Source of the DNA: Schmidtea polychroa
Taxonomy: Eukaryota
DNA length: 64,000 nt
NCBI GenBank assembly: GCA_044892525.1
Contig: CM097885.1
Location: forward strand, 33,294,001 to 33,358,000
Direction of reading: 5' to 3'
Shown here: in pieces, positions 30,201-62,553 of the stretch
Layout: the number at the start of each line of letters is the position of its first letter
Numbering within the stretch: the first letter of the stretch is position 1
The notes under the pieces: model-generated
Database searches by the model: none
Told to the model about the DNA's origin: nothing
What the model saw: the letters and a program-made list of their open reading frames with translations, nothing else
Program-made: the position numbers and the translations under genes

Positions 30201-33200
30201 AGAATAACATTTAAGTATTTTATTAGAGAATGTATACAATATCTAGTTAATGTATACACTGTCTAAGTTTATACTTTAAATGTAACATACACTACATGCG
30301 TTTCTACTATTGGTCTACAGCAAATGCAGCATTGGAATATATAAAAGTAATGACATAATCTGAGGAGTCGGGCAATCAAAACAATCAATCAAACATGCAT
30401 ACATCCATGCATATTAATTATAAAAGTTAACATAACATAATATAATTAACATGGAAATCAAATATCCCAATACATTTACTTTAAATTTAACATTGATAAA
30501 AATTCATTATATAAAATTGCAACTTTTTTCCTTATTTAAATAGAAAAAGTTATTATATATTGACCTGTATCCTGACAATAAATATACGATGAAAAGGATT
30601 GTTAGAGATATTATCGTAAATTAATGTAAGCTGCAAAACAACTTTAAAATGATAGTCGTTCATCATATAATACGAGTATTTGCATTTATTCCTACAGATA
30701 AAAGTATACAACTTAATTTATTTTATATAATTTAGTCGTTTGATAAAGGTATTCTTAATAAAGGTTAAATTAATATTATAATTACTCTGATATTAAAAAT
30801 AAATTATTAATTTTTAATAAAACAAAAAATAAATTACTTTTCAATTTAATGTTGCAGAGGAATAAAACACCGATTTCACTTCCAATTACAAGATATTCAT
30901 TATCTGTCGGATTTAAACTACCACAAAGTATAGAAACACTTTTTGATAAACTTCCTCTATAACGTATAGATTTCGGTAAATCTCGAGCTGTCAAATTATA
31001 ACTGAAATATAATTAATAAAATTACTAGTTATAGTATAATATTATATATTTCTAAATATAAAAATATGATCAACTGTGAAAGTTTTACATATACGGAATA
31101 AAAGGAATAAATAAATATAAACCAATTATTCGTTATATATAATACGTTGAATTTATTTTATTTTTGAAAAGAATTTAATTATTTAACACAATTTTTCGGC
31201 ATAGCTTTTTACATCCATCGTAAATCGTAAGCTATTGAAAAATCACATTTAATAATTGGTAGAGGGCAATTTGGAAGAATATAATATGCAAAAATCATTG
31301 ATTGTTTGACAAAATAACAAAGATTTATAAATAAAATATGTAAAAATACGAAGTTTTAAAATTTTGAATTGAGAAAACAGAATTTTATGATTTTTTAGCA
31401 AAATATAATTTTAAAAATTAATGAATTAGTTTGTTTGAAAAAGAGCAAATCTAATGATGACAGTGAGTCTGTCGAAATATATTGTAGTTTAATATATATT
31501 GGATTCGCGNNNNNNNNNNNNNNNNNNNNNNNNNNNNNNNNNNNNNNNNNNNNNNNNNNNNNNNNNNNNNNNNNNNNNNNNNNNNNNNNNNNNNNNNNNN
31601 NNNNNNNNNNNNNNNNNNNNNNNNNNNNNNNNNNNNNNNNNNNNNNNNNNNNNNNTATATTAATAAATTCAATATATCTTAAATAATATTTATAAAAACA
31701 AATACTAATACTAACATATGAATCGAAAAGGATCTCAAATATTGTAAAAGAAATGTGAATTGCATACTTTTTTTAATTCAAAAAAGTGAACTTCCATTCA
31801 AAGTCACGAAAAAGTCATGGTACTCTTTGATATTAGAAAATAAATACAAAGTTAAATATTAAATGATTGATTGGCTTCAAAAATTTACAAATTTAATAAT
31901 TGTCTAAAGAAAATATACAAAAGCATGATGCCCATAAATTTAAACCTAATAAAACATCGTATTATATAAAATCTTAAATTTATTTATTCTAAACAATGCT
32001 TCAGTTTATAAATTAATTTAAAATAAATAGATTTTATAATATCAAAATAATTATTTTATTAGTCTTTAAATAAATATAATAGTATCATATGACCAGTTGG
32101 GATCTCAAATTTCAAAAGTAGAAATAACGGAACTTCATTGATAAAAATGTAAATAAACATTCAAAGAAATTATCATTTATTTAAGCTAGATAAATATGAT
32201 GAAAATGCAAAAATAGTTATCTTCAATCAATTATGGAGAAAAATTTAAATCATGTAGCGATTTAATCAAAAGAAAAAAAAGAAAAAAAATATTTATGTTA
32301 ATATAAAAAATATTTGTTATGATAAAAAAATCACTTGTTTGAATAATCAGTTTTTTTTAATTTTTATGCTAAAATACATATATAGTGATTTTGATATTTT
32401 TTAATAATTTATTATGAATTATATTATCAATGATTGGTTCACAGAATATTCCGATGGAAATATGTCTTCTCAAGGAGTATTTTAAATTAGAATAAAAATC
32501 TGGAAAATCTTGGCTTGCATTCCCTTATTAATATTACTTATGGCATTTTTTGTTCAATACCAATTATGTTGGCGATTTATTTCTACCCGATATTAACAGA
32601 AAAATTGGATTTTGGTCTGGAGATGTTTATAAATTACAATGCGATGCAATTGTTGTTCCAATCAATAATTCAGTCGAAGGCGAACTTTCCGTCGAATCTT
32701 CATTAATTTATAAATTTGCTGGAACTAAATATGCGCCTTTAATGCAAAATACCGTTTTTTCTCATGAAGCTGTAACACATTTCACAGATGTTTCAAGTAG
32801 TAATGAACAACAAAAACTAAACCGTATCATTCCGGTTTTCATGCCATTTATTGGATATATTATATCACTAATAATTGGAACTTTAATTGTTGTTCTCATG
32901 TCTATCGTTGGATTTTGCTTCTGTTTATGTCGACGTGGGGAGAAATGTGGTGGTAAAGTTAAAGTTCTATTAGGAATCATTTCTGTTATTATGTTAACTG
33001 GCATTGTTCTAACGTTTATCAAAATAAACTAATCCCTGACACGCTAACAAATCCAAAACTTATGCACCATTCTCTTTCTAATATTTACATTGAAATATCA
33101 AATGCAGAAAAGTTATCCAGAAACAATGATGGCCTGATAAATAAAACTCAGTTTCAAGATATGCTCAGCTGCCAATATTTTAATAATCTAAAAGCGGATT

Positions 33201-36084
33201 CTTTTAATGAAAAGGTCAAACAATGTCCTTCATCAATCAAGAAGGAGCAAACCACAACAAAATGATTTTACCAAAAAAAATTATTCGATTTTACATTTCA
33301 ATTCAATAAAAATAAATATAATAGATTTAATTTCAAACATCATCGATAATAAAATTATAAGAAAATTATTTAAAATTTATTTGAAATATAAATTATATTA
33401 AATTAATTAGGAAATTTGTCTAATCAATAAAAAAATATTTATGAAATTTATAACAAATCTGGAAAAATATTATTTGGCTTTTATAGTGTACGTGGAATGG
33501 TCAAATAAATTCGTGTTAAAACGGTTGCATCATTTATAAAACAATAACTTTCTATTTATTACGAAATACCAATCTCATTCCATGTGATCAGCAGATCTAA
33601 TTTAAAAGTACAGGTAACACCCGTTCACCGCGACCCTGGCGAGTGCGAATTCGTTATAACGCGACCGCAATTTAAAAAAATATTTTTCAGACACGCTTTG
33701 AGAGTGCGATAAATCGTCATAATGAGTGACACATAATGTTCTTGCTCACTTATACGCATTTAAATGTACATAGTAAGTCATGAGAGTGAGTGAGACAAAA
33801 TAACGTCACTACTTTGCTCTTAGTAGATACAATTTACATACATACAGTTGACCTAGTCTTAGTTGTGATAACAAACGCGTCTTAATTAATTAAATTGATT
33901 ACATAATGATTTTTGAGCAATTTGTAATTTTTAAAATGTCAAAAAGATAAAGTGATAAATCGGTTAAGAAAACTCGCAAAGTATTGACCTTGGAAAAGAA
34001 ATTAAAAATTATTGAAATGACAGAAAATGGTGCTAAATGTACAGCTGTAGGAAGTGATTTAAATTTGGCCGAGTCTAAAGTGCGAACAATTGTGGGACAA
34101 AAAGATAAAATTAAAAAGGCTGGTGAGAGTGTTACTCCATTTACAGGGACGAAAGTTTCACGAACCAGAAGTTTTTTGATGACGGAAATGGAGAATTTAT
34201 TAAGCAAATGGATAGAGGATCTGAATCAAAGGCTATTAATACTCAAATCATAATGACTAAATCACTTAGTCTTTGGGATCATTTAAAATCTCAACATGAA
34301 GGAGATAAAATATTTAAAGCAAAGGTTGGTTTGATCGGTTTAGAAAACGATCAAACTTGCATAATCTTAAAATGATTGGTGAATCGGCTAGGGCTGACAT
34401 GGAATCTGCTGAAAAATATCCAATTGAGTTCCGGAAAATTGTGGAAAGGGGAAATTATTCAACAGATTTAATTTTTAATGTGGATGAAACTGGACTTTAT
34501 TGGAAACAAATGCCGTCGAGTACATTGATTTCCATAGATGAGAAGACTGCTTCTGGGTTTAAAGCATCTAAAGACCGTTTGTCTATTAACAATTTGTGGG
34601 TCTAAATATAATTGCGAACAATTTTAAAACCTACGAAATACAAACCAAATTTGGCATAGTTATGTTGTAGAAGAAGGTTCAAACCCGAAAATCACACTAG
34701 ATTTACTTTTTAAATACCTAATATATTTTATGAATTTTATTGTTTTTATTTTGAATTAATAAAAATTCAGTTCATTATTTTATTATGGCTCCACAATATT
34801 GTATTTTGAACTTTTTTATAGTTTTTTCTCTTAGGTTGAAAAAGGTTTCTAGCCATTGGTTTATCTTATGCAAGACTACCTTGACTTTCGATGCCACTGG
34901 AATTGATCAGCTACGTGTTATTGTCAAAAACAAATTCCAGAAAACTTATTAAACAAAGAAAATTTATTAAAGAAAACTTATTAAAAATTCAGACGAAGAT
35001 CTCAGTTTGGTTTGTAATTTATTCATTTGAGAGCACAACAAGAGTTGAGAAATATAGAACGAAAGAACAATTGCGAGATGAAATCAAGCGCAGTATTGAT
35101 GAGAATTTCAACAATTCGCATATCATAGTTTATCAAATAGACTGGAAATGCATGGTTGTTAGATTATCTTGAAAAAGACGAACAGCCGTTAACATCAGAC
35201 AAAGAATCAAGTCTAATTGAAATATGTTAACTGATGAAAGTCCAGTTGGACGACATGCAACTCATCACCATCAACAAATCCCTCACTCGAATACATCTGA
35301 TTCCACTGTATTAGTTTGGTCCAATAAAGAAGCAACGGAAATTTAGAAGGCCGAAACAATATATCAGTAAAATCTATAGCAATCGAGGATTCTATTTAAG
35401 TAATGAGTGTAGTATTAGTTGAAAGAAACATCAGCAGAGGGGTTGACAAATCATTCGCAAGCGTAAAAAGAGAAAATTATCAAACCTGTAGCACAGCAGA
35501 ACACCAATACAAAATAAAATAAAATTGCACTCTCCTTTGAAAACCAAGTAAGTGTTCCATTCCAATTGCACTTAGAAAAAACTAATATCAAAAACTGGGT
35601 TATTATTGAAGTGCATGGCATGGTGGGCTAATATGGATAATTACGTGGATTCATTTGTGAGAAATTATATCGATAGGAAAAGAAAGTTAATATTGAAAGT
35701 GTAAGGCAATCACGGGAGCGGGATGGGAAACCATTTGATCACATCCATTTGTACTGAACATTTATAAAAATTCAAATATTCAGATATATTTTGATGAAAT
35801 AATTCTTGTGTATCTTTTATATTGGAATTTTATTTTATGTAAAAATAATATTCAGAATAAAATTCAGAACTTGGCTGTTTGTCATATGAAATCATTCAAT
35901 ATTAATAATAAAAGTCATAAATACTATTTGACGTGTAGACTTCTAAATATGATTTACAACCAGAAAATTCTGCTGCCATAATTTATAGTTTTTCAACAAA
36001 TTATTTGATGACTTTACTTTTAAGATTTTATTCCGAGAAATAAATATTGAAAAATTAAAAGTAAGTATGAAATAGAATAATAAC

Positions 36085-36163
<79 letters not shown>

Positions 36164-39100
36164 TTAATAATAATTAGAGCTTCCAAAATTACTGTATATC
36201 CGATTAACGGTAATACCGAAATCATTTTCCATCATTACCGATATTTCAGGAAAAAATTTATTGCAGTATTTTTGTTTGAAAAGTTTTTGATATAAATATA
36301 GACCAGCATTTTTCAATTTTTGTTTTCATTGTTCCACCAGCTAAACAAATTAAATGTTTGCTTAGCACTAGCAAAAGTCAGAAAAAAATCAACAAGCTTA
36401 TCTTCAAACAGGATATGTTTAGTATTGAAATGGCGCTGGAGTATAGGTTTCATTGAATGATTGAAAAGTTTTTATTGCAGATGACACATTGGAATGTGGG
36501 TTCATTTTCATCACCACGACCATGTAGATCCAAAGGATAGATACCTATCGTAAGATTCGTTATAGACAAGTTCTTGTTTTATTTTAAGTTTCAACCATTG
36601 ATGCTTTTTGTGTTTTCAAATTATAATAATATATAATGAATTATAATTTATTAAAGTAATGTAGTTTTTGTAATGTAAGTATATAATTTGTATATATTTT
36701 GTTTTCTTTTAAATCCATTTAATACATATAATGACGACCTTTGCGTTTCAAAAGAGCTCACTGATGCTTGCAAGTCTTAATTTGTAACGAGTTTGTTGTT
36801 AGTTGAATTTGCCGTGTTTTTGACAATAATTTTAAGCACCACTCTTAGAAGAATTTTTATTATCAGAACAATCTTTATAGGTTTTACCATTTTAGAATTA
36901 TCAAAACTTCAAATGTATGAAACCTATTATGATATTCTACTACCACATTTTAAAAATAGAATATCAATGCATGCAATGGATACAGATAGTATATTTTTAA
37001 AAATATATACTAAAAACCTAAAAGAGGAAATATCTGAAAATGAAATCCCAAGGAATTTAATAAATTCATCTGGAGAATTATTCACCTTTAAAGATGAAAA
37101 ACCAAATACTCCAATAATTGATGCTGTATTTATTAGAGCCAAACAATATTCACTAGAAATGATTGAAGCCCCAAAGACTGAAACCCATTCAATTAGGATT
37201 GGGGATATAGACTATACATTTGATATACCAGTATTAAAACTTGTAACGTCTAAAGATAATAAAAATAAAGGTATACAGAAAGCAGTTTCTAGAACTATAC
37301 CCCATCAAGACTATAAGGATATTCTAAATAAAAATCAACCAGATAAAATAGTTGAGGTTCATCAACTTAAATCTGAAAAGCATTACATGTATTTAGAAGA
37401 ATCAAATAAAATATCATTATCAAATTATGATGATAAGAGGTATATTTTATCAGATTTAAAAAAGACTTCCAATTGGAAATGATATGATTCCACATATAAA
37501 AAATTTAAAAGTCTTGAATGATTTATATCATACAAACATAACAGACCTTCAACTGTATCAAGTTCAAATACTCTACCCTGAAAGTCATTCTGAAACTCGA
37601 AATATTTTAGACTCTATAACCATATACGTCAAGTATTTAAATACTAATCCATCAGAAGAAGAATTTGAATCTCATAGATTAGAGATTCAAAGATTATCAG
37701 CCATCAATGACTGAAAGTCTCTGAAAGTCATTCTGGAATCTTAAAAATGACTGAAAAATCAATACTTGAAAACTTAAAGTCTTTAACTGACGACAAGATA
37801 CTTTTAATTGATATTATCAAAGTTTTGCATAAATTAAAAAATAAACCATCTGTTTCAATAATAAAAATTTTTTCTTTTATATTTATAACATCTTTTTTAT
37901 TTGCTCTTTTATTTTCTCTTGCTCTACCTTGGTTGAAGTCTTTCTGGCTTTAATCTCTTTAGATATTTTCATCAACTGAACCTCAAGATCATTTATAATC
38001 CAAAGTAATACAGGCTCTCGAATAGCAAGTTGCGCAGCTTGCAGGGCTTTATCCTCTGAAGATTTCTCATTATATTCTTTTAATGCAAGACTTGATTCCT
38101 TTTTAATAATAGGATTGCTTTTTATCAAGTTTAAAACACGTTCATTCATTTATTAAAGTTTTTATTTTCTTCTCTCCATTTGCTAAATAACAAGGTCTGG
38201 GGTCCGGAAGTCAAAGGCTGTTGATCTAAAATATCTTCAACATCTTCAGTCGTAGAGACTTCTATCCCGGAGGCTAAAGGATCTTTCTTTTGCCTTTTAT
38301 ATTTCTTAGACTTGATGCAGTTATGATTTTGTTGAAGTACATTAGTTGAACAATCATTACAATAAACACCCTTTTTCTCTATAGCCTTCTTTCTCTTACC
38401 TGTATGCCTATAGGGAGAATCAATTCCTAAATCTTTTCTAATTCTTCTCATCGTCGAGTCTGAAGTACCAATCATTTTACAAATTTGAGTCTGAGAAAAA
38501 GTAGGGTTTTCACTCTTTAATCTTGCAAATTCAAAGACTTTCTCTTTTTGTTGAATCTTGTTTAATTATTGAAAGCTGTTCAATTTTTTTTATAAAGCCA
38601 TCCATTTTTATAGTTGAGGAAATAAAGCAAAATAATATTCTCCTTTTCCAATTTGGTCTTGTATACTTAAAGATTGAAATTTAGTTATTTTATTTAAATA
38701 ATCAGGGTCATTAATTCTTACAAGATAAAAGATGTAACACTTTTCACATATTCTAATTTTATCCTCAAGTGATAAACTTCTAAAATCATTCAACCTAGAT
38801 TTCATTATTTCTTCCATTTTTTAAATTAAAAATTATACAGTCTTACGAAGTCTTACGTCGAAGTCTTACGTCGAAGTCTTACGAAGTAACAATTTCTCTC
38901 GGTATTGTTTTTTATCTTCTTTAACCTTTGTGGTTTTCAACTTTATAACTTCATTTTTAATATCTTGAATTATTTGATTTGATTTCATTATTTCTTCATC
39001 TGTTAGGATTCCATCTTCCAAGGCTTTTAATTGAAATAAAAATAATTTTGATATCCCCAAGTCTATTGTCAAACAAGCTTCACGATATAAACTTTTCTTT

Positions 39101-42100
39101 TTTGAAGTATAAGATAAAGAAAATATTTCAGTCAAGAAAGAATCTGCAACAGAAATACTTCCAAGTATTACGGGTGCAAGAGTAACAACTGGTAAAGTTA
39201 TAGGTAAAACAATTGTAAGTATTGCAGATGTAAATCCTAAGGAGTAACCTATAATCTTTAAAGCTGTATTCCCTTTATTCCATCTATTTTTAATTTTTTT
39301 ATAATGCTTTAGTAAGTCATTTAAATGTAAAGTTTCTGATTTAAATTCTTTCACTCTCATGACTTCAAGTTCTGTAGGAGCTGATGGTTCTGGACTTTGT
39401 ATCTTTGGATAGATGGTTTCCATTTTAATAATTAAAAAATTAAGACTTTATTATCTGGTACCAACGCTCGCATATTATAAGAAGTTCGTGTTGTGAGAAT
39501 GTCTTTATACAATTCTACCAACGCTTTACGAACTTGATCAACATCAACCTTTTTTTCATAAAATATTAAATCTATATAACTTACAAGTGTGCTTTTAAAA
39601 ATAATATTCTTACTTTTAACTTTGTGTTTTTTGTGAATCAGTATTATCATGCCAATGTCCATGTGGTAAATCATAACCAGTTATTATAACTTCACCCTTT
39701 TCAAACATACTATTATAATCACATTTTACAAACCATTTCATTGTTTCACCATCATCAGTAAATAAAAAGAAATAAGGATCAATAATCTTTACAACCATAA
39801 AACAAGACCATTCTTTACTATTTGTTGTTATTAAACTTGGTTCTATAAAATGTTTATATCTATTGGGTAATAATGTATTATTCTGTTCTAATTCAGCAGC
39901 TCTTTTTCTAATAGTGTGTGTTGTGTTAATGTGTGTTGTATGAGATTCTAATTTGACAAGTCTTACATTAAATGATGCAATCATCTCATTTATTATATTA
40001 TATATTGTATTAATTTTATTATCCATAAGTTTTTTATGCATAAGTCTTTTATTTTTTTAAAATTGGTATTGTATCAGTTAACCTTTGAGTTTCTTTGGCT
40101 ATCTTTAAGGCTTCTTCATTTAATCGTTGTTCGATATTATTAAGCTTGGATCCTGTAGAATTAAATCTTTCATCTACATATTTTTTATTAGTTGCATCAA
40201 AACCATCAATCGGAGGAGATAATTCTTTTATCTTGTGTCCGTTTAAAAATAAATCACCCTTCATTGAATCTCCTTTTTCGTTTACAAATCTTTTTTCTGT
40301 AAGGTTTATAACATCTTCATCTTTTAATCCATCATTATATAATCCTAATTTATTATAATTCATTTTTATAGTCTAAACTTGTTTCAAATGTAAACACATT
40401 GAAATCTTTTCTCCATTAAAATTAATTAATTCTCCATTTTCATCAACAATTTTAAAATGAATATCCATTAGGTTTTTTCTACATAAAGGTAAATAGTTTG
40501 GAGGATTCATTCTTTCAACCATTTTATACCCAACTCTGACAACATTAGAAGGAAAGGAATATAAAATATTTGCATGTTTACCATTATTATACGAACCCGT
40601 TATACAATCACATAATTAAATATATTATGTAAGCCATTATAGCGGAGTGGGAATAGGCTTCAATTTTATCACCGGGAGTACCGGGTTCAATTTTCGATTT
40701 TGGTCAATTTTTTTCGATATTTTTTTTCAACGGAATCTGATTCAGCGTACTGATTTTAGAATATATTTAAATTTTCAGATCGATCTGAGTGGTAGTTGTC
40801 GAGAAAATGAATAATTAATTTCATCAATAAATAGTCACGCATTAACAACTTATTTTATATTGAGTATAGCTCTAATAGCTTTAAGGTAATAGCACTCGAC
40901 TGCATTGCCAATATCAATGGGTTCAAATCCCATTTCGGTTAATTTTTTTTCAAATTTTTTTTAACGAAATATTGATCAGCATACTCGATTTAGTACTTGT
41001 ACAAATTTTTAAGGTGATTGGTCAACGGCAACTCTTGGAAATTTAAGATCAAAAACGTTTTAACTTAAGCTACCAATGTACATTAGATAATTTAAAATAT
41101 TTTTATACTATTAATATAGCAAATTGCGCCGCTTGCTAGTTTTTAATATTTAATATTTTTATGTTTTACAAGTAGTGGACGTATGGCCTTCACGGCGTAA
41201 ACCTGGTATCCTCGGTTCCTGCCAGGGGGATTAAGGATTTGGCTTGGTAAATTAGGGGTTTTTATGAATAAAAGATGTAAAAATAAAGGGTTAAAAAGAT
41301 GGAAATGTTTAATTTTTAAGCTGGATGGCTAGGATGGGGTGGTGCCGTGAAGGCCATACGTCCACTACTGACATCAAAGGTGCAGCCATTATACCTTACA
41401 GTTAATAAATTGTGTAAAATGTAAGAGGACTATATCATCAATGATACATCAAACATACAAAGTCTGGCATCTTATTTTCGAATGGATTGTCTCCTCCTCG
41501 GAAGAATTTAACATTTCAACCTTTTTAAATAGCTTTCATGTTTGTTTCGGTGAAGATGACGATGTTTTTTGAAACTGAAGAAAATGAAATGGAAATTAAC
41601 GAGTCTGGTTCAAACATTGCTGACGCCTCTGAACTTGTCGATTTACTAGAAAATGTCATTGTTACTGATAATGAAATTTGTGATGATTATAAAGCGATGT
41701 TAAGAAAAGTCAAGGTAAATAAAGAAGTGTATCTTCAAATTAAACAGTGTTTTAATCGAATAAGCTGCACATCGTATTAGCTGCATCGCAAAAATGTTGC
41801 TTTTAGCACGTATAAGTTGCAGCTTATACTTGGGATTTTACAGTAATAACTAAAATAATAAAAACTAAAAGTCAAAAGTCAAATGATAGGAAAATTAATA
41901 AATTATCTTGTCCTTTCATTAGTTAAAATTGAAAGAAAGTCTTTGCCAAATGAAAGCACTGTTTACAAAATTTTCTTAGATCTTTGATTCAATTATACTA
42001 CAATAATTATTTGGTATTTACATTCAGTGTCTGCAATTGAAACGATTTTTTCCGTTTTAAAAATAACTTCATCAGATAAGCCATTCTTTGAGAGAAAATA

Positions 42101-45100
42101 TTTTCTTGTCTATTAATTTAACATCATTTTATTTATTTCAAATTGTAAACGAAGTACTAATCAATTTGTTTTTAAAATATCTGTTTTGATTTTCAATTAA
42201 ACTTCATTAATTATCTCGCATTTTGTGGGAAAACAACGTATTTTTGTCCACTAGGTCGCACGATTACATGTCCCATATCTTCAGAACTGTTTGTCAAATT
42301 TTACTAAGTTCATTTCACATTATTTACTATCATACCGTGTTTTGCTTCAGAAATAAATACCGGAATATATACAGCAATCTTAATACAAAAGATAAGTAGG
42401 TTGATGGAAAACTGAAAGTTCAAGTAGGATTTTCCTTGAAATAAAATGCAGAATTTTACTGGTAAGTAGAACAACTGAAGAACAAATTTTGATGATTTCT
42501 ATAATTGATGTATTGTCTTATTTTTTTGTCTTTTCGTTTAATTTTTATGGAATAGATCAGTAATGAGGATTAGCAGTCCCTTCGGGTCGTTGACAAATGT
42601 TTAAGGGTATATATTAAAAATGGACGTTAGGCGACGAAGGAACAAATTATCTTCAATAAAATCTCCTAAAAATATTTTGACTAAGATTAAATATTTTTTC
42701 TACTTAATATATTTAAAGTAAGGTTGTTAAACGAAAATCGAAAAGTCTATTTTCTGGTTTGAAAATGGTAATCAATTTACCAAAAACCGATATTAACAAT
42801 TCTAAGTAGAAAGTAAACAATTTGGTATTGACACTGTTTTACGTGTTCGCATTATATTATAATATGTTTCTATGAAATACATTAAGAATCGATAATAGGT
42901 TTAAAGTCGAATTAATTATTAACAACCCAGATTAATTTAAAAATGTAAAAAATTTCCATTTTAATGGAAAAAACTACTACATGTGTCAATATTTATGAAT
43001 TTCAAAATTATCATACCCTTTTTCACAGAAAATCTTCCATAGAAATCAAATGTTAATTGGAAATTTTAGTTGGACAACGAGTTATTTTAACACTCAAGTA
43101 CTTTGGCTGCACCGCAGCGGCTATTTTAAATTTAAACATAATAGAATGCATTTATTGTAAATGGATTTAATTTTTTTTCTTAGGTGAAGAAATATAAAAG
43201 TTCTTTTTTCATGTTCTTTTTATCTGCATTGAACTTATACTATCGCAGCTGCGGCGAAAGGAAAGTGTTGGTGTGACAAATTTTATTTAAGTATTAAAGG
43301 GTTAAGATCAAGGAAATTTTTGTGTCTGATTTTTGTGTTTTATTTTTTTAATTTAAATTGTGATCAAATCTACGGAAATTTGTTATAAAGTAAAAGCTCA
43401 TTATTGGATAAAAAATTCAAAAATGGTGTTATTTTATTAAAATAATATTAATAAGAAAAACTTCAAGTAATTTATTTTCAAAAAAATGCATTTTTATAAT
43501 AATATTTGGTATAATTTTTGTATAATATAGAATCTATATTATAGATTTTAACAACTGTTGTTCATTCTGTTGGACCTTAAGGCACAAAATGTTGGGATAT
43601 TTTTTATCCGGCTTTTAAAAAGTGTTCAAATAAAATTAGTTTTTCGATGAAATGTCGATTACTGATATGTTACAGTATGAAAGAAACACCTATTATAATG
43701 AAAGGCGAGTAATCTTGCTTCCTTTTATATACGTATGCTAGGAAGCAAATATCCTGTTTTCGCATAACATAAATCAATTTTAAACATAAAATTTTTCTTA
43801 CGAAAATCCGTGTTCAAAAACGGATGTTAGTCGCAAAAAGGTTATGTATCACCAAAATAGATGAACAGGTAACATGTTAATAAATAAATTCGTAAATTAT
43901 TGATACATGACATTAATTTTAAATAAAAACTTTAAAATTTAGTTTCAATATTTTTGTAAACCTCAGAAATTGTCTCTCTTCTATTTTCTTCTCAGAATAA
44001 TGGACATATTATATATAGATAAAATAAATTTTGAGGTACTGCAAATCATTATAATCTTACAAATGGAAGTAAAATACTATCAATAATTGAACCATACAAT
44101 AAAAACTGAAATTATGAAAAAAGATAATAAGAAGAAGCAATTATAAACAAAATAAGTGTAAAAGTGATTTTGTCGTATGACTTACCGTATTTTAGCGCAT
44201 ATAACGCGCACGTTATACGCATTTTTACAAACCGTGCACCCCCCATGCGCGGTATCTGTGGGTGCGCGCTTTATGATTTATATTTTACACGTGGCGGCAT
44301 TGCCAGTGGAAATATTTTTATGATGTGACAGTAACCCTACCATCGGTTTTATTGTTTATTGTAATCAGATACCGTGCGCGTTATATGCGCTAAAATACGG
44401 TACAAAAAATTAAACAGCATAAGCTTTGTGATACCCAGTGCAAGTCTCAATAGTAGAATAGTTTCAAAATTTTGGCTCTCATCAGCATTATGCAGAAGAC
44501 GTGAATAAAGAGTGAAATTATATGAAAGAAAACTAGAATTAAAATTTCTGTTAGCTATTAATAAAGGTGAGTTTTTGTAATTTTTTGAAATAAAGGTTTT
44601 CTGAAATTTTTCGACTTTCGGTTTCTATTCTGAATTGCTGTTACTGAACATTGTTTTGGTTTCTGGAATTTTGATATTGAAAAATAAATCCTTTTCTGAG
44701 TTTTTTCTTAATTTAATTATGAATCAAATTGAAGTTAGTGAACATGTTCAAGGGTTTAACTCAAAGAATGGATACGGGGATTCATTAGTGTTGACAATAA
44801 AAGTAATGATAAAGAAGTTCTTGTTCATTTTAAATCGATTGCTGCTACAAATGAAACTTCAAATCATGAATCAAGAAATGTTACTGATCCAGATGGAGGC
44901 GATATTGATGATAATATTTAGTCTATGAAAGGTAATTAAACTTTGAAATACACGTTTGTAACACGGCATTGAAACAAATTTGGATGATATGAAAAGTATC
45001 AGACGCTTTACAATGAAAAGGAAATTGCGCCGCTGAATCTCAAAGCTGACAAAAGATCCATGAATCAAATTATTTTGGAGACATTTAATGCACCAATGAT

Positions 45101-53102: not shown

Positions 53103-54346
53103 TGCCAAATCCATCATGGAGGCAAAGGTAACAAAAAAAAATTAAAAAATTAAAATTAAAATTATGGCACTAAAATTGCCATTAAAATCACTTAAAATGC
53201 AAAATAGAACGTTTTAGAATTAAAAAGAATTCGAGTTTGTTTTACTGCATCAACGCACACACACGTATTTGCACACCAAAAAATAGATATATATATACCG
53301 CCACATTTCAGTCACATAAAAAGCTTAATCATCATTTTATGCCAAAAATTTTCTTTGTTGATATTGAAATCTAATTCGAATCCTAATAGTAAGAAATTTT
53401 TTTGTATTATTTGTTATTATACTTCATTATGCCAAAATGATTTTATTCGGTATTTTATTTTTAATTTTGCTTATAAGCAAAAGTGATCAACGTTTTTGTA
53501 GACATATTTTTGATCGCGACGTTGACCAGCCATGCTTCCAACTTTGATAAAATTCCATGCACAATGATTATGGGTCTACGACTCCAGATTCACTGAAATG
53601 AATTTTTAACTGCTAGAGGTTGCCACTAACAAATAGTGTTTACCCAGGAGTAGGGCGGATAAATCCATCACACGGACTATGCGGACGAAGTAATTTACGG
53701 GAAACTAAATTGGGATACATACTACAATAGGGCCTGTCGTACCCTATTCAGTGTAGTCGGAAAAGTGGGTAAATTTTAATTAATTTGACCTTTCATTAAA
53801 TCACATATGTAATATGAACATTCAACTATATTATAGAAAACACAACACTAAGAAAATCTGAACGAGAAATGTCCCAGACTCAAATTTCTACAATACACTC
53901 TGGCAGCTGGTTAATTCAGGAAATCCTTCAAACTTTTAATACGTCTAATATCAAATATTTTAAAGTGGTTTTAATTAAACTTATTCATATTCTATAATTA
54001 TTGATATTTAGAAAGCGTAAACTTAGTCAAAATCTAATAAAGCCCGAATCATTGTTTGATTCTCGGATTATTCATTTTTAGGGTATGCCAAAGGTATTAG
54101 GTTCTTTTACTAATTCTACACTTTTAGAAGTATTTGAATAAGCCCTACATTACGATGTAATGTCATGAAAATTAATATTAGAAATCCCTACTTCCATTTG
54201 AAAGCTGAAATCTTTAAAGACCAAAAATTAAACCATAATTTTATTATACGTGGTTAGCTCTATTCTTACCTCTATTCAAAAATCTAATACCATTATACTT
54301 TAAGATCACATCTCACTATAATAATAAAGGAATGATTAATTTTAGA

Positions 54347-54870
54347 TCGGTATTATCTAAAATATACTACCCTTATATTTACCTCTTGATGTCTATATTA
54401 TTTGGGCTAATATATATTAATCTCAAGTCTGTATTAGCAAAATGTACGACCTATATTTTTTTATATTAATGTCTATAATATTTGGTTAAGAAATTTAAAC
54501 TTTTAATCTGTATTATCTAACATCTACGATACTTATTTTTACATCTTAATGTCCATATTACGTGGTTAATAGAAAATAATTTTAAATCGGTATTATCTAA
54601 GATATGCGATCTGTATTTTTACATATTAATACCTATATGGTTTGGTTAATTAATATTAAATTTTAAGTCTGTATCGTCTAAAATATACGAGCTTTACATC
54701 TCCATATTAATGTCTATATTATTTGGTTAAGAAATATTAATCTTACATCTGTATTATATAAAATATACGATCGTTAGTTACGTATTAACGTCTATATTAA
54801 TTAATAAGTATTAATTTTTAAATCTGTACTACCTAAAATATACGCTCTCTATATTTACATATTAGTTATG
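54347..54870. repeat. ~80-bp tandem minisatellite, about 7 diverged units
   Basis: TC(T/G)GTATTATCTAAAATATACGA-like motif recurs at 54347, 54428, 54507, 54587, 54668, 54748 and 54823. Confidence 0.9.
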
Positions 54871-59357: not shown

Positions 59358-59783
59358 TTTTGATTGAAAGTAAAAAAAATTGTTCTGTTTTGGGATTCGA
59401 TTTATTTGGTTGAATAAGAACACGAGGAGCCAGAGAGAGAGAGAACAGACTTTCAAATAAAAACTCAACACTGAAAACTCAACTGAATCAGAGCCGTAGA
59501 AAGGTTTTTAGGCGCACAGAGCAGAGGTTAAGTTTAACGCCTTACAAGACTCCACCAAAATAATAAACCCGTAATAACTGATACCTTATTGGATGTGATA
59601 AGTTTATTTTTAGTAATCTAAGTGGTGGACCTTCGTTCTTTTTTAGGATTTCATCCTCTTTGTTATCGGGGTGTTTAATGTACAAACCAACGTAAAACGA
59701 TAACGATTCCAAAATAAACTTGCGTCACTAATAGTAAAATAATACTCATGTTTATATCTTTAATTTAAACATTTACAACTATT
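59358..59783 (+). repeat. ~420-bp LTR-like direct repeat, copy 1
   Basis: Collinear and highly similar to 61692-62107. Confidence 0.9.
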
Positions 59784-59995
59784 TGAGTTTTCTCAAAATT
59801 ATGACACCCCCTATTTTCTGCAACTTCGCGCCAATGGCAATTACCCTATTGGCCAGCCCTGCACAGAATATCGCAAAAATTAATTTCCCCCTTAGAATAA
59901 AAAATTCGAAATATCTACGTGGTTAAATTTAATTAATAAATTGAACAAATGAGTGAACTAAATTCATGAATTTGATCATCTTATATTTATATCTA

Positions 59996-60223
59996 TTCCC
60001 TCTGTCCAAAAATGATAGTCCAGTTGCATTTTAGCCTCCCCCAAAACCCTAACCTAAAAAAAATAAATTTTGTTTTATTGAAAATCTATGGCTAAAAGTT
60101 AATATCAATCTATTTTCGATGATACTGAATAAGATTATACAATCTGTTTTAAGTAATTTTGAGTGGTTGCAAAGAATTTACGATTTAAAGTCAAACTGGA
60201 CTATCATTTTTGGACAGAGGGAG
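59996..60223. mobile_element. Stowaway-like (Tc1/mariner) MITE
   Basis: TA-(C/T)TCCCTCTGTCCAAAAATGATAGTCCAGTT inverted repeat with TA TSD. Confidence 0.88.
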
Positions 60224-60580
60224 TATTAAATAATTATAATGCCATCACCACCCCACTTCAAAAAATTATGACTGTATCTAAAATATGTTTTATAGTCATC
60301 TTGCTTTGTTACCTAGCAACAACTATTAAACTGGTTTTATTGAAAACATATTTGTTTATCTAGTAAACAATTACATATTTATGGCATTACAAAATTATAT
60401 AAAAGTTTATATCAAACTTATGTAATTGAAAAAGTATTCGATATCAATAATAATGTTGGAAACCACTGACTTAGACAAAACTAAATAATAAATGATATAT
60501 GGCAAAAGGAAAAGACAGATTTCATACTATTTCACTAACAATTTATAACAGAATCAATTTCTAATAACAAAAAATGATTA

Positions 60581-61691: not shown

Positions 61692-62107
61692 TTTGATTGA
61701 AATTAAAAAAATTGTTCTGTGTTGGGTTTCGATTTATTTGGTTGAACGAGGAGTCAGAGATAGAGAACCGACTTTCAAATAAAAACTCAACACTGAAAAG
61801 TGAATCAGGGCCGTAGAAAGGTTCTTAGGCGCCCAGAGCAGAGGTTAAGTTTAACGCCTTACAAGACTCCACCAAAATAGTAAACCCGTAATAACTTATA
61901 CCCTATTGGATGTGATAAGTTTATTTTTAGTAATCTAAGCGGTGGACCTTCGTTCATTTTTAGGATTCCATCCTCTTTGTTATCGGGGTGTCTAATGTAC
62001 AAACCAACGTAAAGCGATAGCGATTCCAAAATAAACTTGCGTCACTAATAGTAAAATAATACTCATGGTAAGTGTTTATATCTTTAATTTAAACATTTAC
62101 AACTATT
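61692..62107 (+). repeat. ~420-bp LTR-like direct repeat, copy 2
   Basis: See 59358-59783. Confidence 0.9.
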
Positions 62108-62553
62108 AGTTTTTTCTTGTCAGTAGCGGATCGATGATGTTTTTACGTATAAAATTTGATTCCAAAATTCCAAAGGTGGTCCATGAAGCAATATTATCAA
62201 TTAAAACGCGTGATCTTATTTCCGTTACAATTAAATTCATGCTACTGAAACAACGCTAACATTCTGAAAAACTGCAAGCTATAATTTTAGAATATTTTTT
62301 TAACGTTTCCAAATCGTCTGAAATGTTACGACCACCACAAGCCAAGTAATCTCTAAAGGCATTTAAAATTTTTCCCAAAGGTAAATTAAAGCGTTGGCAG
62401 AGAGATTTTACTTTTTTCTCTCCAAATTCTATATTATTTTCAGAGAGCCATTCAAATTCGCAATTTTTAAAAATTTGGGACTTGTCGGAATTCAAAATTC
62501 CGTCTGAACCTGAACAATTTGGAGATGTAGTGTTTAGGCTATTCTTCATACTA
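62108..62553 (-). mobile_element. hAT transposase C-terminal remnant (KIAA1586-like)
   Basis: NAFRDYL..KIIACSFSEC*RCFSSMNLI..RSR..HHRSATD; cut at the piggyBac TTAA. Confidence 0.6.

Follow-up and report, generated by a model that had tools for sequence, protein, structure and literature searches.

A hydrophobic-hairpin protein with late-domain-like motifs in a Polinton/adintovirus element of Schmidtea polychroa

Introduction

Whether and how animal Polintons make particles and exit cells is a standing question. It is considered here for a 64,000-nucleotide stretch of the Schmidtea polychroa genome (GCA_044892525.1, contig CM097885.1, positions 33,294,001 to 33,358,000 of the forward strand; hereafter the window), in which the relic of a Polinton/adintovirus element retains an open gene for a small membrane-type protein. 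The N-terminus of this protein carries two short motifs that resemble viral late domains, YPx[LI] of the ALIX type and P[ST]AP of the TSG101 type. Late domains typically show fixed key residues, a free wildcard position, free spacing and interchange, and their interchangeability is reportedly treated in a dedicated paper. [quoted passage not shown] The chances are about even that this conserved Polinton/adintovirus gene encodes a membrane adaptor that recruits ESCRT for exit without lysis, and it is rather probable that its YPx[LI]/P[ST]AP motifs, as predicted from sequence, bind ESCRT at all.

What would be new is a late-domain-like membrane adaptor in a Polinton; late-domain adaptors as such are already known. 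The literature within reach of the search, from which most subscription papers are excluded, contained no report of late domains in Polintons. Adintovirus together with ESCRT found no literature, and Polinton together with ALIX only a plant-transposon review; of the papers listed by a broader search, none mentions Polintons. The terms ‘ESCRT’, ‘late domain’ and ‘envelop’ do not occur in the available text of the adintovirus description (PMC8502044), and a motif search in the available part of the adintovirus supplement gave no match. The adintovirus sequence files might include the membrane-protein family under the name ‘Adintoc’.

The membrane protein and its two motifs

The open reading frame (ORF) lies on the minus strand at 38866-39423 and encodes 185 amino acids from an ATG start without an internal stop. 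YPKI (residues 5-8, window 39400-39411, with I4 directly before it) and PSAP (residues 13-16) precede a hydrophobic stretch, just as an earlier note on this DNA had described. The hydrophobic stretch consists of 37 residues without charge (57-93), and the 15 residues preceding it carry 6 K/R. The same note had called the protein a two-transmembrane (2-TM) one; a single charge-free stretch is indeed present, but 37 residues are short for two full membrane passes, and it may therefore form a tight or re-entrant hairpin. The ORF had also been called fully intact, which holds for the reading frame but not for the surrounding element. The rest of the window, read in six frames (119,392 residues), contains no P[ST]AP and 35 instances of YPx[ILV], and when the 185-amino-acid sequence is shuffled, both motifs fall inside the first 25 amino acids in 0 of 100,000 shuffles.

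Conservation of the motifs in homologs

The motifs are retained in close homologs well above expectation. Among 34 close public homologs, 29 have the tail; YPx[ILV] is present in 26, P[ST]AP in 19 and both in 17 of these 29 tails, where shuffles lead one to expect 1.39, 0.06 and 0.003, respectively. With 7 more close homologs added, tails are found in 35 of 41. When the sequences are clustered at 70% identity, the YP motif occurs in 11/11 clusters and strict PSAP in 4/11, with ASAP or ATAP in 4 others. On a tree of 29 cores PSAP is spread over several separate clades, and in close homologs its distance to the core anchor varies from 23 to 51 residues.

When 1.84 billion representatives were searched with a profile, 308 matches reached E <= 0.001, and the best 150 of them include 135 new representatives. 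After 22 tail-less fragments had been dropped, 113 distant homologs were kept, all of them significant on the core alone (113/113; median identity 29%). Their tails contain YPx[ILV] in 86/113 (1.9 expected), P[ST]AP in 15/113 (0.09 expected), both in 8/113 and either in 93/113, fractions that lean upward because the profile contained the tail, which favours motif carriers, and because only the best 150 of the 308 matches were used. L or I stands before the Tyr in 70 of the 86 YPx[ILV] tails, the x position holds 16 different residues, and the ‘YP’ dipeptide alone is seen in 99/113 tails; PPxY/LPxY is found in 0/113. PSAP may stand before YP, after it, fused with it (YPTAP), or without a YP motif. 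Viral contigs, scanned with the protein itself, with an alignment and with three distant homologs, yielded no relative, nor did phage records. A motif-first DNA scan gave at least 120 loci with no homolog among the matches listed, and these were set aside as chance matches.

The element is present in high copy in S. polychroa itself. The search of its genome with the membrane protein gave 150 scored matches among 2,548 candidates. The 103 loci examined comprise the best 30 of these 150, a biased set because the ranking is by likeness to the window protein, the 30 best and 40 more of 133 ranked by a 39%-identical homolog (three apparent duplicates being skipped), and 3 others; 90 of the 103 belong to the window's own subfamily. 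The biased set shows YPx[ILV] in 30/30 and P[ST]AP in 28/30 loci. In the second set (51 usable of 57 copies) the figures are 41/51 and 35/51, some frameshifted copies being scored as misses. The 62 copies that are open from the start codon through the core have YPx[ILV] in 60, P[ST]AP in 48, [PA][ST]AP in 55 and both strict motifs in 47, and none of them lacks both (0/62). Their tails are 21-68 amino acids long and the spacing of the motifs is 0-42 amino acids. Within YPx[ILV], the x position accepts 9 different residues and the fourth position is I, L or V through 10 codons, in a choice limited by the search pattern; the first Pro of PSAP is encoded by all four Pro codons and its Ser by TCN and AGT, and a swap to PTAP occurs. 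Purifying selection acts on the core (median dN 0.095, dS 0.61, omega ~0.15; 1,635 of 1,891 pairs). A second subfamily in the genome, about 40% identical, is mostly broken; the only one of its open copies in which the tail is clear has retained YPNL and lacks PSAP. The N-terminal tails (L001-L030, L102-L121) also lengthen by short in-frame repeats, such as VQSPE and GPGGQVV units, which create S/T-P sites upstream of the YP motif; phospho-regulation through these sites is possible.

From these alignments, the motifs behave as conserved short linear motifs amid constant insertion and deletion in the tail. The check on motif conservation proposed in the earlier note thus comes out strongly in its favour in the own genome and in close and distant homologs. 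Its tandem late-domain-like motifs, however, survive only in part: as far as sequence can tell, the ALIX-type YPx[LI] is family-wide, whereas PSAP is a lineage-restricted, optional and movable second signal. Since YPx[LI] is found in 86 but PSAP in 15 of the 113 distant tails, the tandem pair is not a hallmark of the family.

Predicted structure and fold comparison

An AlphaFold model built with 29 sequences (pLDDT 75, pTM 0.54) predicts a coil at residues 1-17, followed by helices 18-76, 82-137 and 142-184. In this model both motifs fall in the N-terminal coil, and the hydrophobic stretch lies at the tip of the hairpin. The hydrophobic stretch is found in 106/106 full-length distant homologs and a hydrophobic N-terminus in 1/106, so that both ends of the protein are likely cytosolic.

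The predicted fold is similar to that of uncharacterised proteins from iridoviruses and shows a weak likeness to viral SLATT (SMODS/SLOG-associated 2TM) proteins. Only three matches in the viral fold library reach E <= 0.001, and all are invertebrate iridovirus proteins (A0A068QKD3, A0A5B8RH66 and S6DF61). They align over 184-215 columns with 13-20% identity, but with a high root-mean-square deviation of 11-14 A. SLATT-named viral proteins stand at ranks 5 (E 7e-3, TM 0.43), 11, 23 and 28, at E values from 7e-3 to 0.3. The SLATT proteins of polinton-like and giant viruses share with the Polinton protein its size and its layout of helix, hydrophobic hairpin and helix, which fits the SLATT pattern of two hydrophobic helices ahead of a helical region; the Polinton protein differs from them in having no Pfam SLATT/DUF4231 match and in its late-domain-like tail. 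SLATT/DUF4231 matches in Pfam were seen in 0/29 close and 0/74 further family members, although HMMER may miss remote relatives. A SLATT_4 profile search of the own genome gave no match and was uninformative, its controls being equally silent. The Atlas search led to unnamed clusters of 190-197 amino acids at 0.90-0.93, with DUF4231 as a weak lead at 0.84-0.85, and neither Pfam nor PHROG holds a family for the membrane protein or its homologs. In the PDB, Foldseek found no match at E <= 0.001 but generic helical matches, and the sequence search returned coiled-coil noise. The top VIA rows were BAR and other helical bundles at Z ~10, which is under the bar for helical models, and no BAR-like function was inferred.

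The Polinton element and its relic copy in the window

The gene order of the element is seen in stretches around three fuller copies: a double jelly-roll capsid gene, an ORF with a zinc-finger-like start, PLA2 and rve integrase, the A32 ATPase on the opposite strand, ORFs of 202, 288, 155, 254 and 342 amino acids, the membrane gene, and then the convergent PolB. Polinton/adintovirus context, as the earlier note supposed, is borne out by library matches in the fuller copies for protein-primed PolB (PF03175, E 2.6e-16; a remnant is present in the window), rve integrase (PF00665, E 7.8e-12; fused to PLA2 and deleted from the window copy), the capsid (PF21738, E 6.5e-26) and the A32/FtsK ATPase (PF04665, E 1.4e-8). 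Inverted matches, candidate terminal inverted repeats, flank two of the three fuller copies (287 bp at 95% and 105 bp at 87%). Homologs also occur at 9 metagenome loci on short contigs, 3 of which have neighbors matching the fibre, 155-amino-acid, 254-amino-acid, capsid or PolB proteins of the element.

The membrane gene closes the virion-gene block, next to a fibre-like gene. The 342-amino-acid ORF matches PHROG phage tail-fibre families (E 2e-5). The 254-amino-acid ORF stands in the expected place of the penton and the 155-amino-acid ORF in that of the maturation protease, each with no significant library match; by position they are the presumed penton and protease. A position ‘next to penton and fibre genes’ holds for the fibre-like gene, which is in pieces, but the supposed penton is reduced to the last 74 amino acids of a gene that no library names. 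P[ST]AP occurs in none of the nine other ORFs of the element, and no fusogen-like ORF is found among these nine in the three fuller copies.

The copy in the window (~36869-41066; Table 1) is a relic, its fibre gene fragmented and its PolB reduced to the 3′ end. An internal deletion took out the capsid, PLA2-integrase and ATPase genes with three further genes, and the last part of the 254-amino-acid gene now adjoins sequence from the region upstream of the capsid gene.

Table 1. Features of the relic element and its membrane gene (window positions)
Feature	Position	Strand	Basis
Hydrophobic-hairpin protein, 185 aa; unstructured tail 1-17, predicted helices 18-76, 82-137, 142-184	38866..39423	-	sequence and AlphaFold model
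IYPKI, residues 4-8, [LI]YPx[LI], ALIX-type late-domain-like motif	39400..39414	-	sequence and conservation
PSAP, residues 13-16, TSG101-type late-domain-like motif	39376..39387	-	sequence and conservation
Charge-free hydrophobic hairpin, residues 57-93, basic residues ahead	39145..39255	-	sequence
Short 13-nt tandem repeat spanning the stop codon of the membrane gene	38839..38887	.	repeat scan
Broken fibre-like gene, corresponding to the 342-aa gene of fuller copies	39438..40363	-	sequence comparison, PHROG
Final 74 aa of the 254-aa gene; presumed penton	40373..40615	-	position; no library match
Stretch found in fuller copies upstream of the major capsid gene, fused in this copy to the end of the 254-aa gene	40613..41066	-	blastn 90-94% to L061, L063, L065
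Three small ORFs between membrane gene and polymerase, one weakly helix-turn-helix-like	37883..38820	-	E 0.01-0.2 only
[quoted passage not shown]

The earlier note had further tied the membrane protein to GasderminX, a homolog of the gasdermin C-terminal domain with a pX-like tail that belongs to the Beta virion modules of adintoviruses (PMC8502044). Both are accessory adintovirus genes, GasderminX being proposed as membrane-active, but the link is not supported: no gasdermin appears in Pfam or among the fold rows listed, and whereas GasderminX sits in Beta-type modules without PLA2X, the element carries the Alpha-type marker PLA2 (PF08398, E 4.5e-9). Of the fold comparison with gasdermin and SLATT suggested in that note, only the SLATT side gave matches, weak ones, among the rows listed.

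Several observations concern the element itself. PLA2 and the rve integrase lie in a single ORF of 470-500 amino acids after the zinc-finger-like start (L061:2777-4201, also L063 and L065), and the adintovirus PLA2 has been described with a pX tail instead of an integrase fusion (PMC8502044). The 202-amino-acid ORF (L061:5035-5643) has one amphipathic/hydrophobic stretch (Kyte-Doolittle, KD, 2.06 at 53) and repeated GKGLYL motifs. By analogy, we assume it to be a candidate membrane-lytic, protease-processed virion protein. Next to the first copy at L066 lies another member of the element family, in opposite orientation (L066:6764-9901).

Candidate host partners and transcripts

The genome contains two loci with an ALIX V domain, one of which aligns to human ALIX (E 2.5e-19) and keeps the ‘KFY’ segment, which we take to contain the phenylalanine of the peptide pocket; the second (L068/L070) is presumably HD-PTP. 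There are also two UEV loci, one matching TSG101 (E 1e-25) and spliced in three RNA runs. The second UEV locus (L072) and the second ALIX-V-like locus are possible alternative partners. Contigs from four RNA runs cover the gene family, the window gene included, at 85% likeness; three of the four also show the spliced TSG101 transcript, and no RNA contig holding the window's own stretch is listed. Because genomic copies are so many, this coverage is a weak hint and possibly read-through.

A proposed role and its alternatives

If the protein is an ESCRT-recruiting adaptor, its hydrophobic hairpin, as predicted, would insert into a membrane, and the unstructured N-terminal tail would present [LI]YPx[LI] to host ALIX and, in lineages having it, P[ST]AP to TSG101. 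The basic helical part might hold capsids, and ESCRT-III would pinch off the wrapped capsids and release them without lysis, with endosomes, the plasma membrane and the nuclear envelope as possible sites of budding. This would give Polintons, which are regarded as non-enveloped, a membrane-wrapped way out of the cell.

Acting in this way the protein would be like orbivirus NS3, the best working analogue, in a likeness that implies no kinship. NS3 of the orbivirus bluetongue virus is an egress factor of a non-enveloped virus, has two membrane domains and bears PSAP (PMC7409164). It is likewise small, with N-terminal late domains including PSAP, and itself drives non-lytic exit in a viroporin-like manner (PMC7409164). 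Unlike a Polinton, however, an orbivirus is a dsRNA virus; NS3 has PSAP and PPRY where the Polinton protein has YPx[LI] and PSAP, and a glycosylated loop of 21 amino acids where the latter has a tight hairpin. No sequence kinship with NS3 was found and its fold match is weak (rank 16, E 0.15), so NS3 was rejected as a family assignment and kept as an analogy. Iridoviruses, the source of the closest fold matches, bud via ESCRT, and the ASAP variant of the motif, in an iridovirus protein, bound Tsg101 (PMC4880917). Hepatitis A virus provides the example of a quasi-envelope (PMC8402826). Among Polintons, the nematode Maverick fusogen MFUS-1 likewise suggests membrane-wrapped particles (10.1101/2023.08.22.554363 and another preprint), but it is an 866-amino-acid entry glycoprotein, and none is seen in the S. 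polychroa element. The available main text of both nematode-fusogen preprints contains neither ‘ESCRT’ nor ‘budding’, and one of them leaves it for future work whether only the nematode elements that carry a fusogen become enveloped (10.1101/2023.08.22.554363).

Several points weigh against an adaptor for exit. PSAP is altered to PNAP, PSCP, PKAP or TTAP in some open copies, its strict form is missing from 7/11 close clusters, and few distant homologs have it at all (15/113, with both motifs in 8/113). YPx[ILV] is absent from 27 and both motifs from 20 of the 113, even in a sample that leans toward motif carriers. Genomic context comes from the copies in this genome and the 9 short metagenome contigs, and the distant homologs may not all be Polinton genes. 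With no fusogen-like ORF seen among the nine other ORFs, a true envelope is less plausible than a quasi-envelope. YPx[LI] is, besides, compatible with a YxxPhi sorting signal. SLATT is described as a membrane effector (PMC9503650), and SLATT-type proteins of polinton-like viruses are interpreted as pores or merely listed in four papers whose available main text does not contain ‘ESCRT’ (PMC12220804; 10.64898/2026.06.19.733378; 10.1101/2025.10.09.676808; 10.64898/2026.10.13.758929).

In one alternative, ESCRT binding by the motifs serves the traffic of the protein itself: a SLATT-like pore or membrane protein would be sorted to multivesicular bodies or exosomes, or restrained, without any wrapping of capsids. 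The SLATT-named ranks and the DUF4231 lead in the Atlas search agree with it, as does the abundance of SLATT genes in polinton-like viruses, where a pore function in endosomal escape or lysis is ascribed to them. This alternative is nevertheless unlikely, since Pfam SLATT matches are absent from the 29 close and 74 further family members, the PLA2 domain and the second hydrophobic ORF of the element could already serve entry, and the conserved place at the end of the virion-gene block suits a late, virion-related role. A decoy that ties up ALIX/TSG101 at the membrane, and thereby blocks repair in aid of lytic exit or hinders the budding of rival viruses and retroelements, appears quite improbable. 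Multiple, movable and at times duplicated motifs would serve a sink no less well than an adaptor, and abortive-infection or lytic-egress roles have been proposed for such pore proteins; but a helical core at this omega is presumably conserved more strongly than a decoy would need.

ESCRT might also be uninvolved, with YPx[LI] serving as a YxxPhi adaptor-complex sorting signal and PSAP as a helix cap or linker feature. The motif matches the consensus and stands on the tail of a membrane protein, and in the window's subfamily PSAP usually lies just before the first helix. YxxPhi demands neither the YP so common in distant tails nor the L/I preceding its Tyr, however, and a helix cap is hard to reconcile with a distance to the core anchor that varies so widely in close homologs and with a PSAP that can precede YP in distant ones; this explanation, too, has little probability. 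That the motifs arose by chance, or were passively inherited with the element, can hardly be maintained. Relatedness of the copies in a single genome and the loss of the motifs from broken copies speak for it, but at 29% identity and across separate 50%-identity clusters YP stands at 44x and PSAP at >150x the shuffle expectation, amid tail insertions and deletions, and this view is largely refuted.

An ESCRT-recruiting adaptor can be extended to a history, one held with somewhat less than even confidence: a widespread Polinton, perhaps also iridovirus, family of hairpin proteins, probably SLATT-derived, would have acquired interchangeable late domains for ALIX and TSG101 and so turned into budding adaptors in the manner of NS3, and fusogen-less Polintons would then exit as ESCRT-made quasi-enveloped particles. 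If so, the ESCRT-dependent non-lytic exit of orbiviruses, hepatitis A virus and iridoviruses would be extended to Polintons, and quasi-enveloped Polintons would gain a route for spread from cell to cell, to the germ line and across species. For viral SLATT-like genes there would then be another reading than that of a ‘pore’. Being family-wide, the ALIX-type motif of this virion-block membrane protein points to a host partner that is open to a cheap binding test.

Other features of the window

Just past the end of the relic, at 41171-41369, lies a unit of 199 bp whose 26-bp terminal inverted repeats are perfect and start with AGTAGT, ends that we take to be Polinton-like; it is possibly a miniature non-autonomous element. 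On the other side of the relic are a broken CENP-B/Tc5-type transposase remnant (33951-34605; PF04218, E 1.2e-8) and a Prominin-like exon of a host gene (32532-33032; PF05478, E 2.6e-8, just under the cut-off). Two small units resembling miniature inverted-repeat transposable elements, with inverted arms of 34-40 bp that are 152 bp apart, occupy 44183-44402 and 59994-60225. A degenerate tandem array with a period of ~80-81 bp spans 54279-54864, and a direct duplication of ~420 bp, 91-95% identical and 2.3 kb apart, is found at 59368-59793 and 61700-62117.

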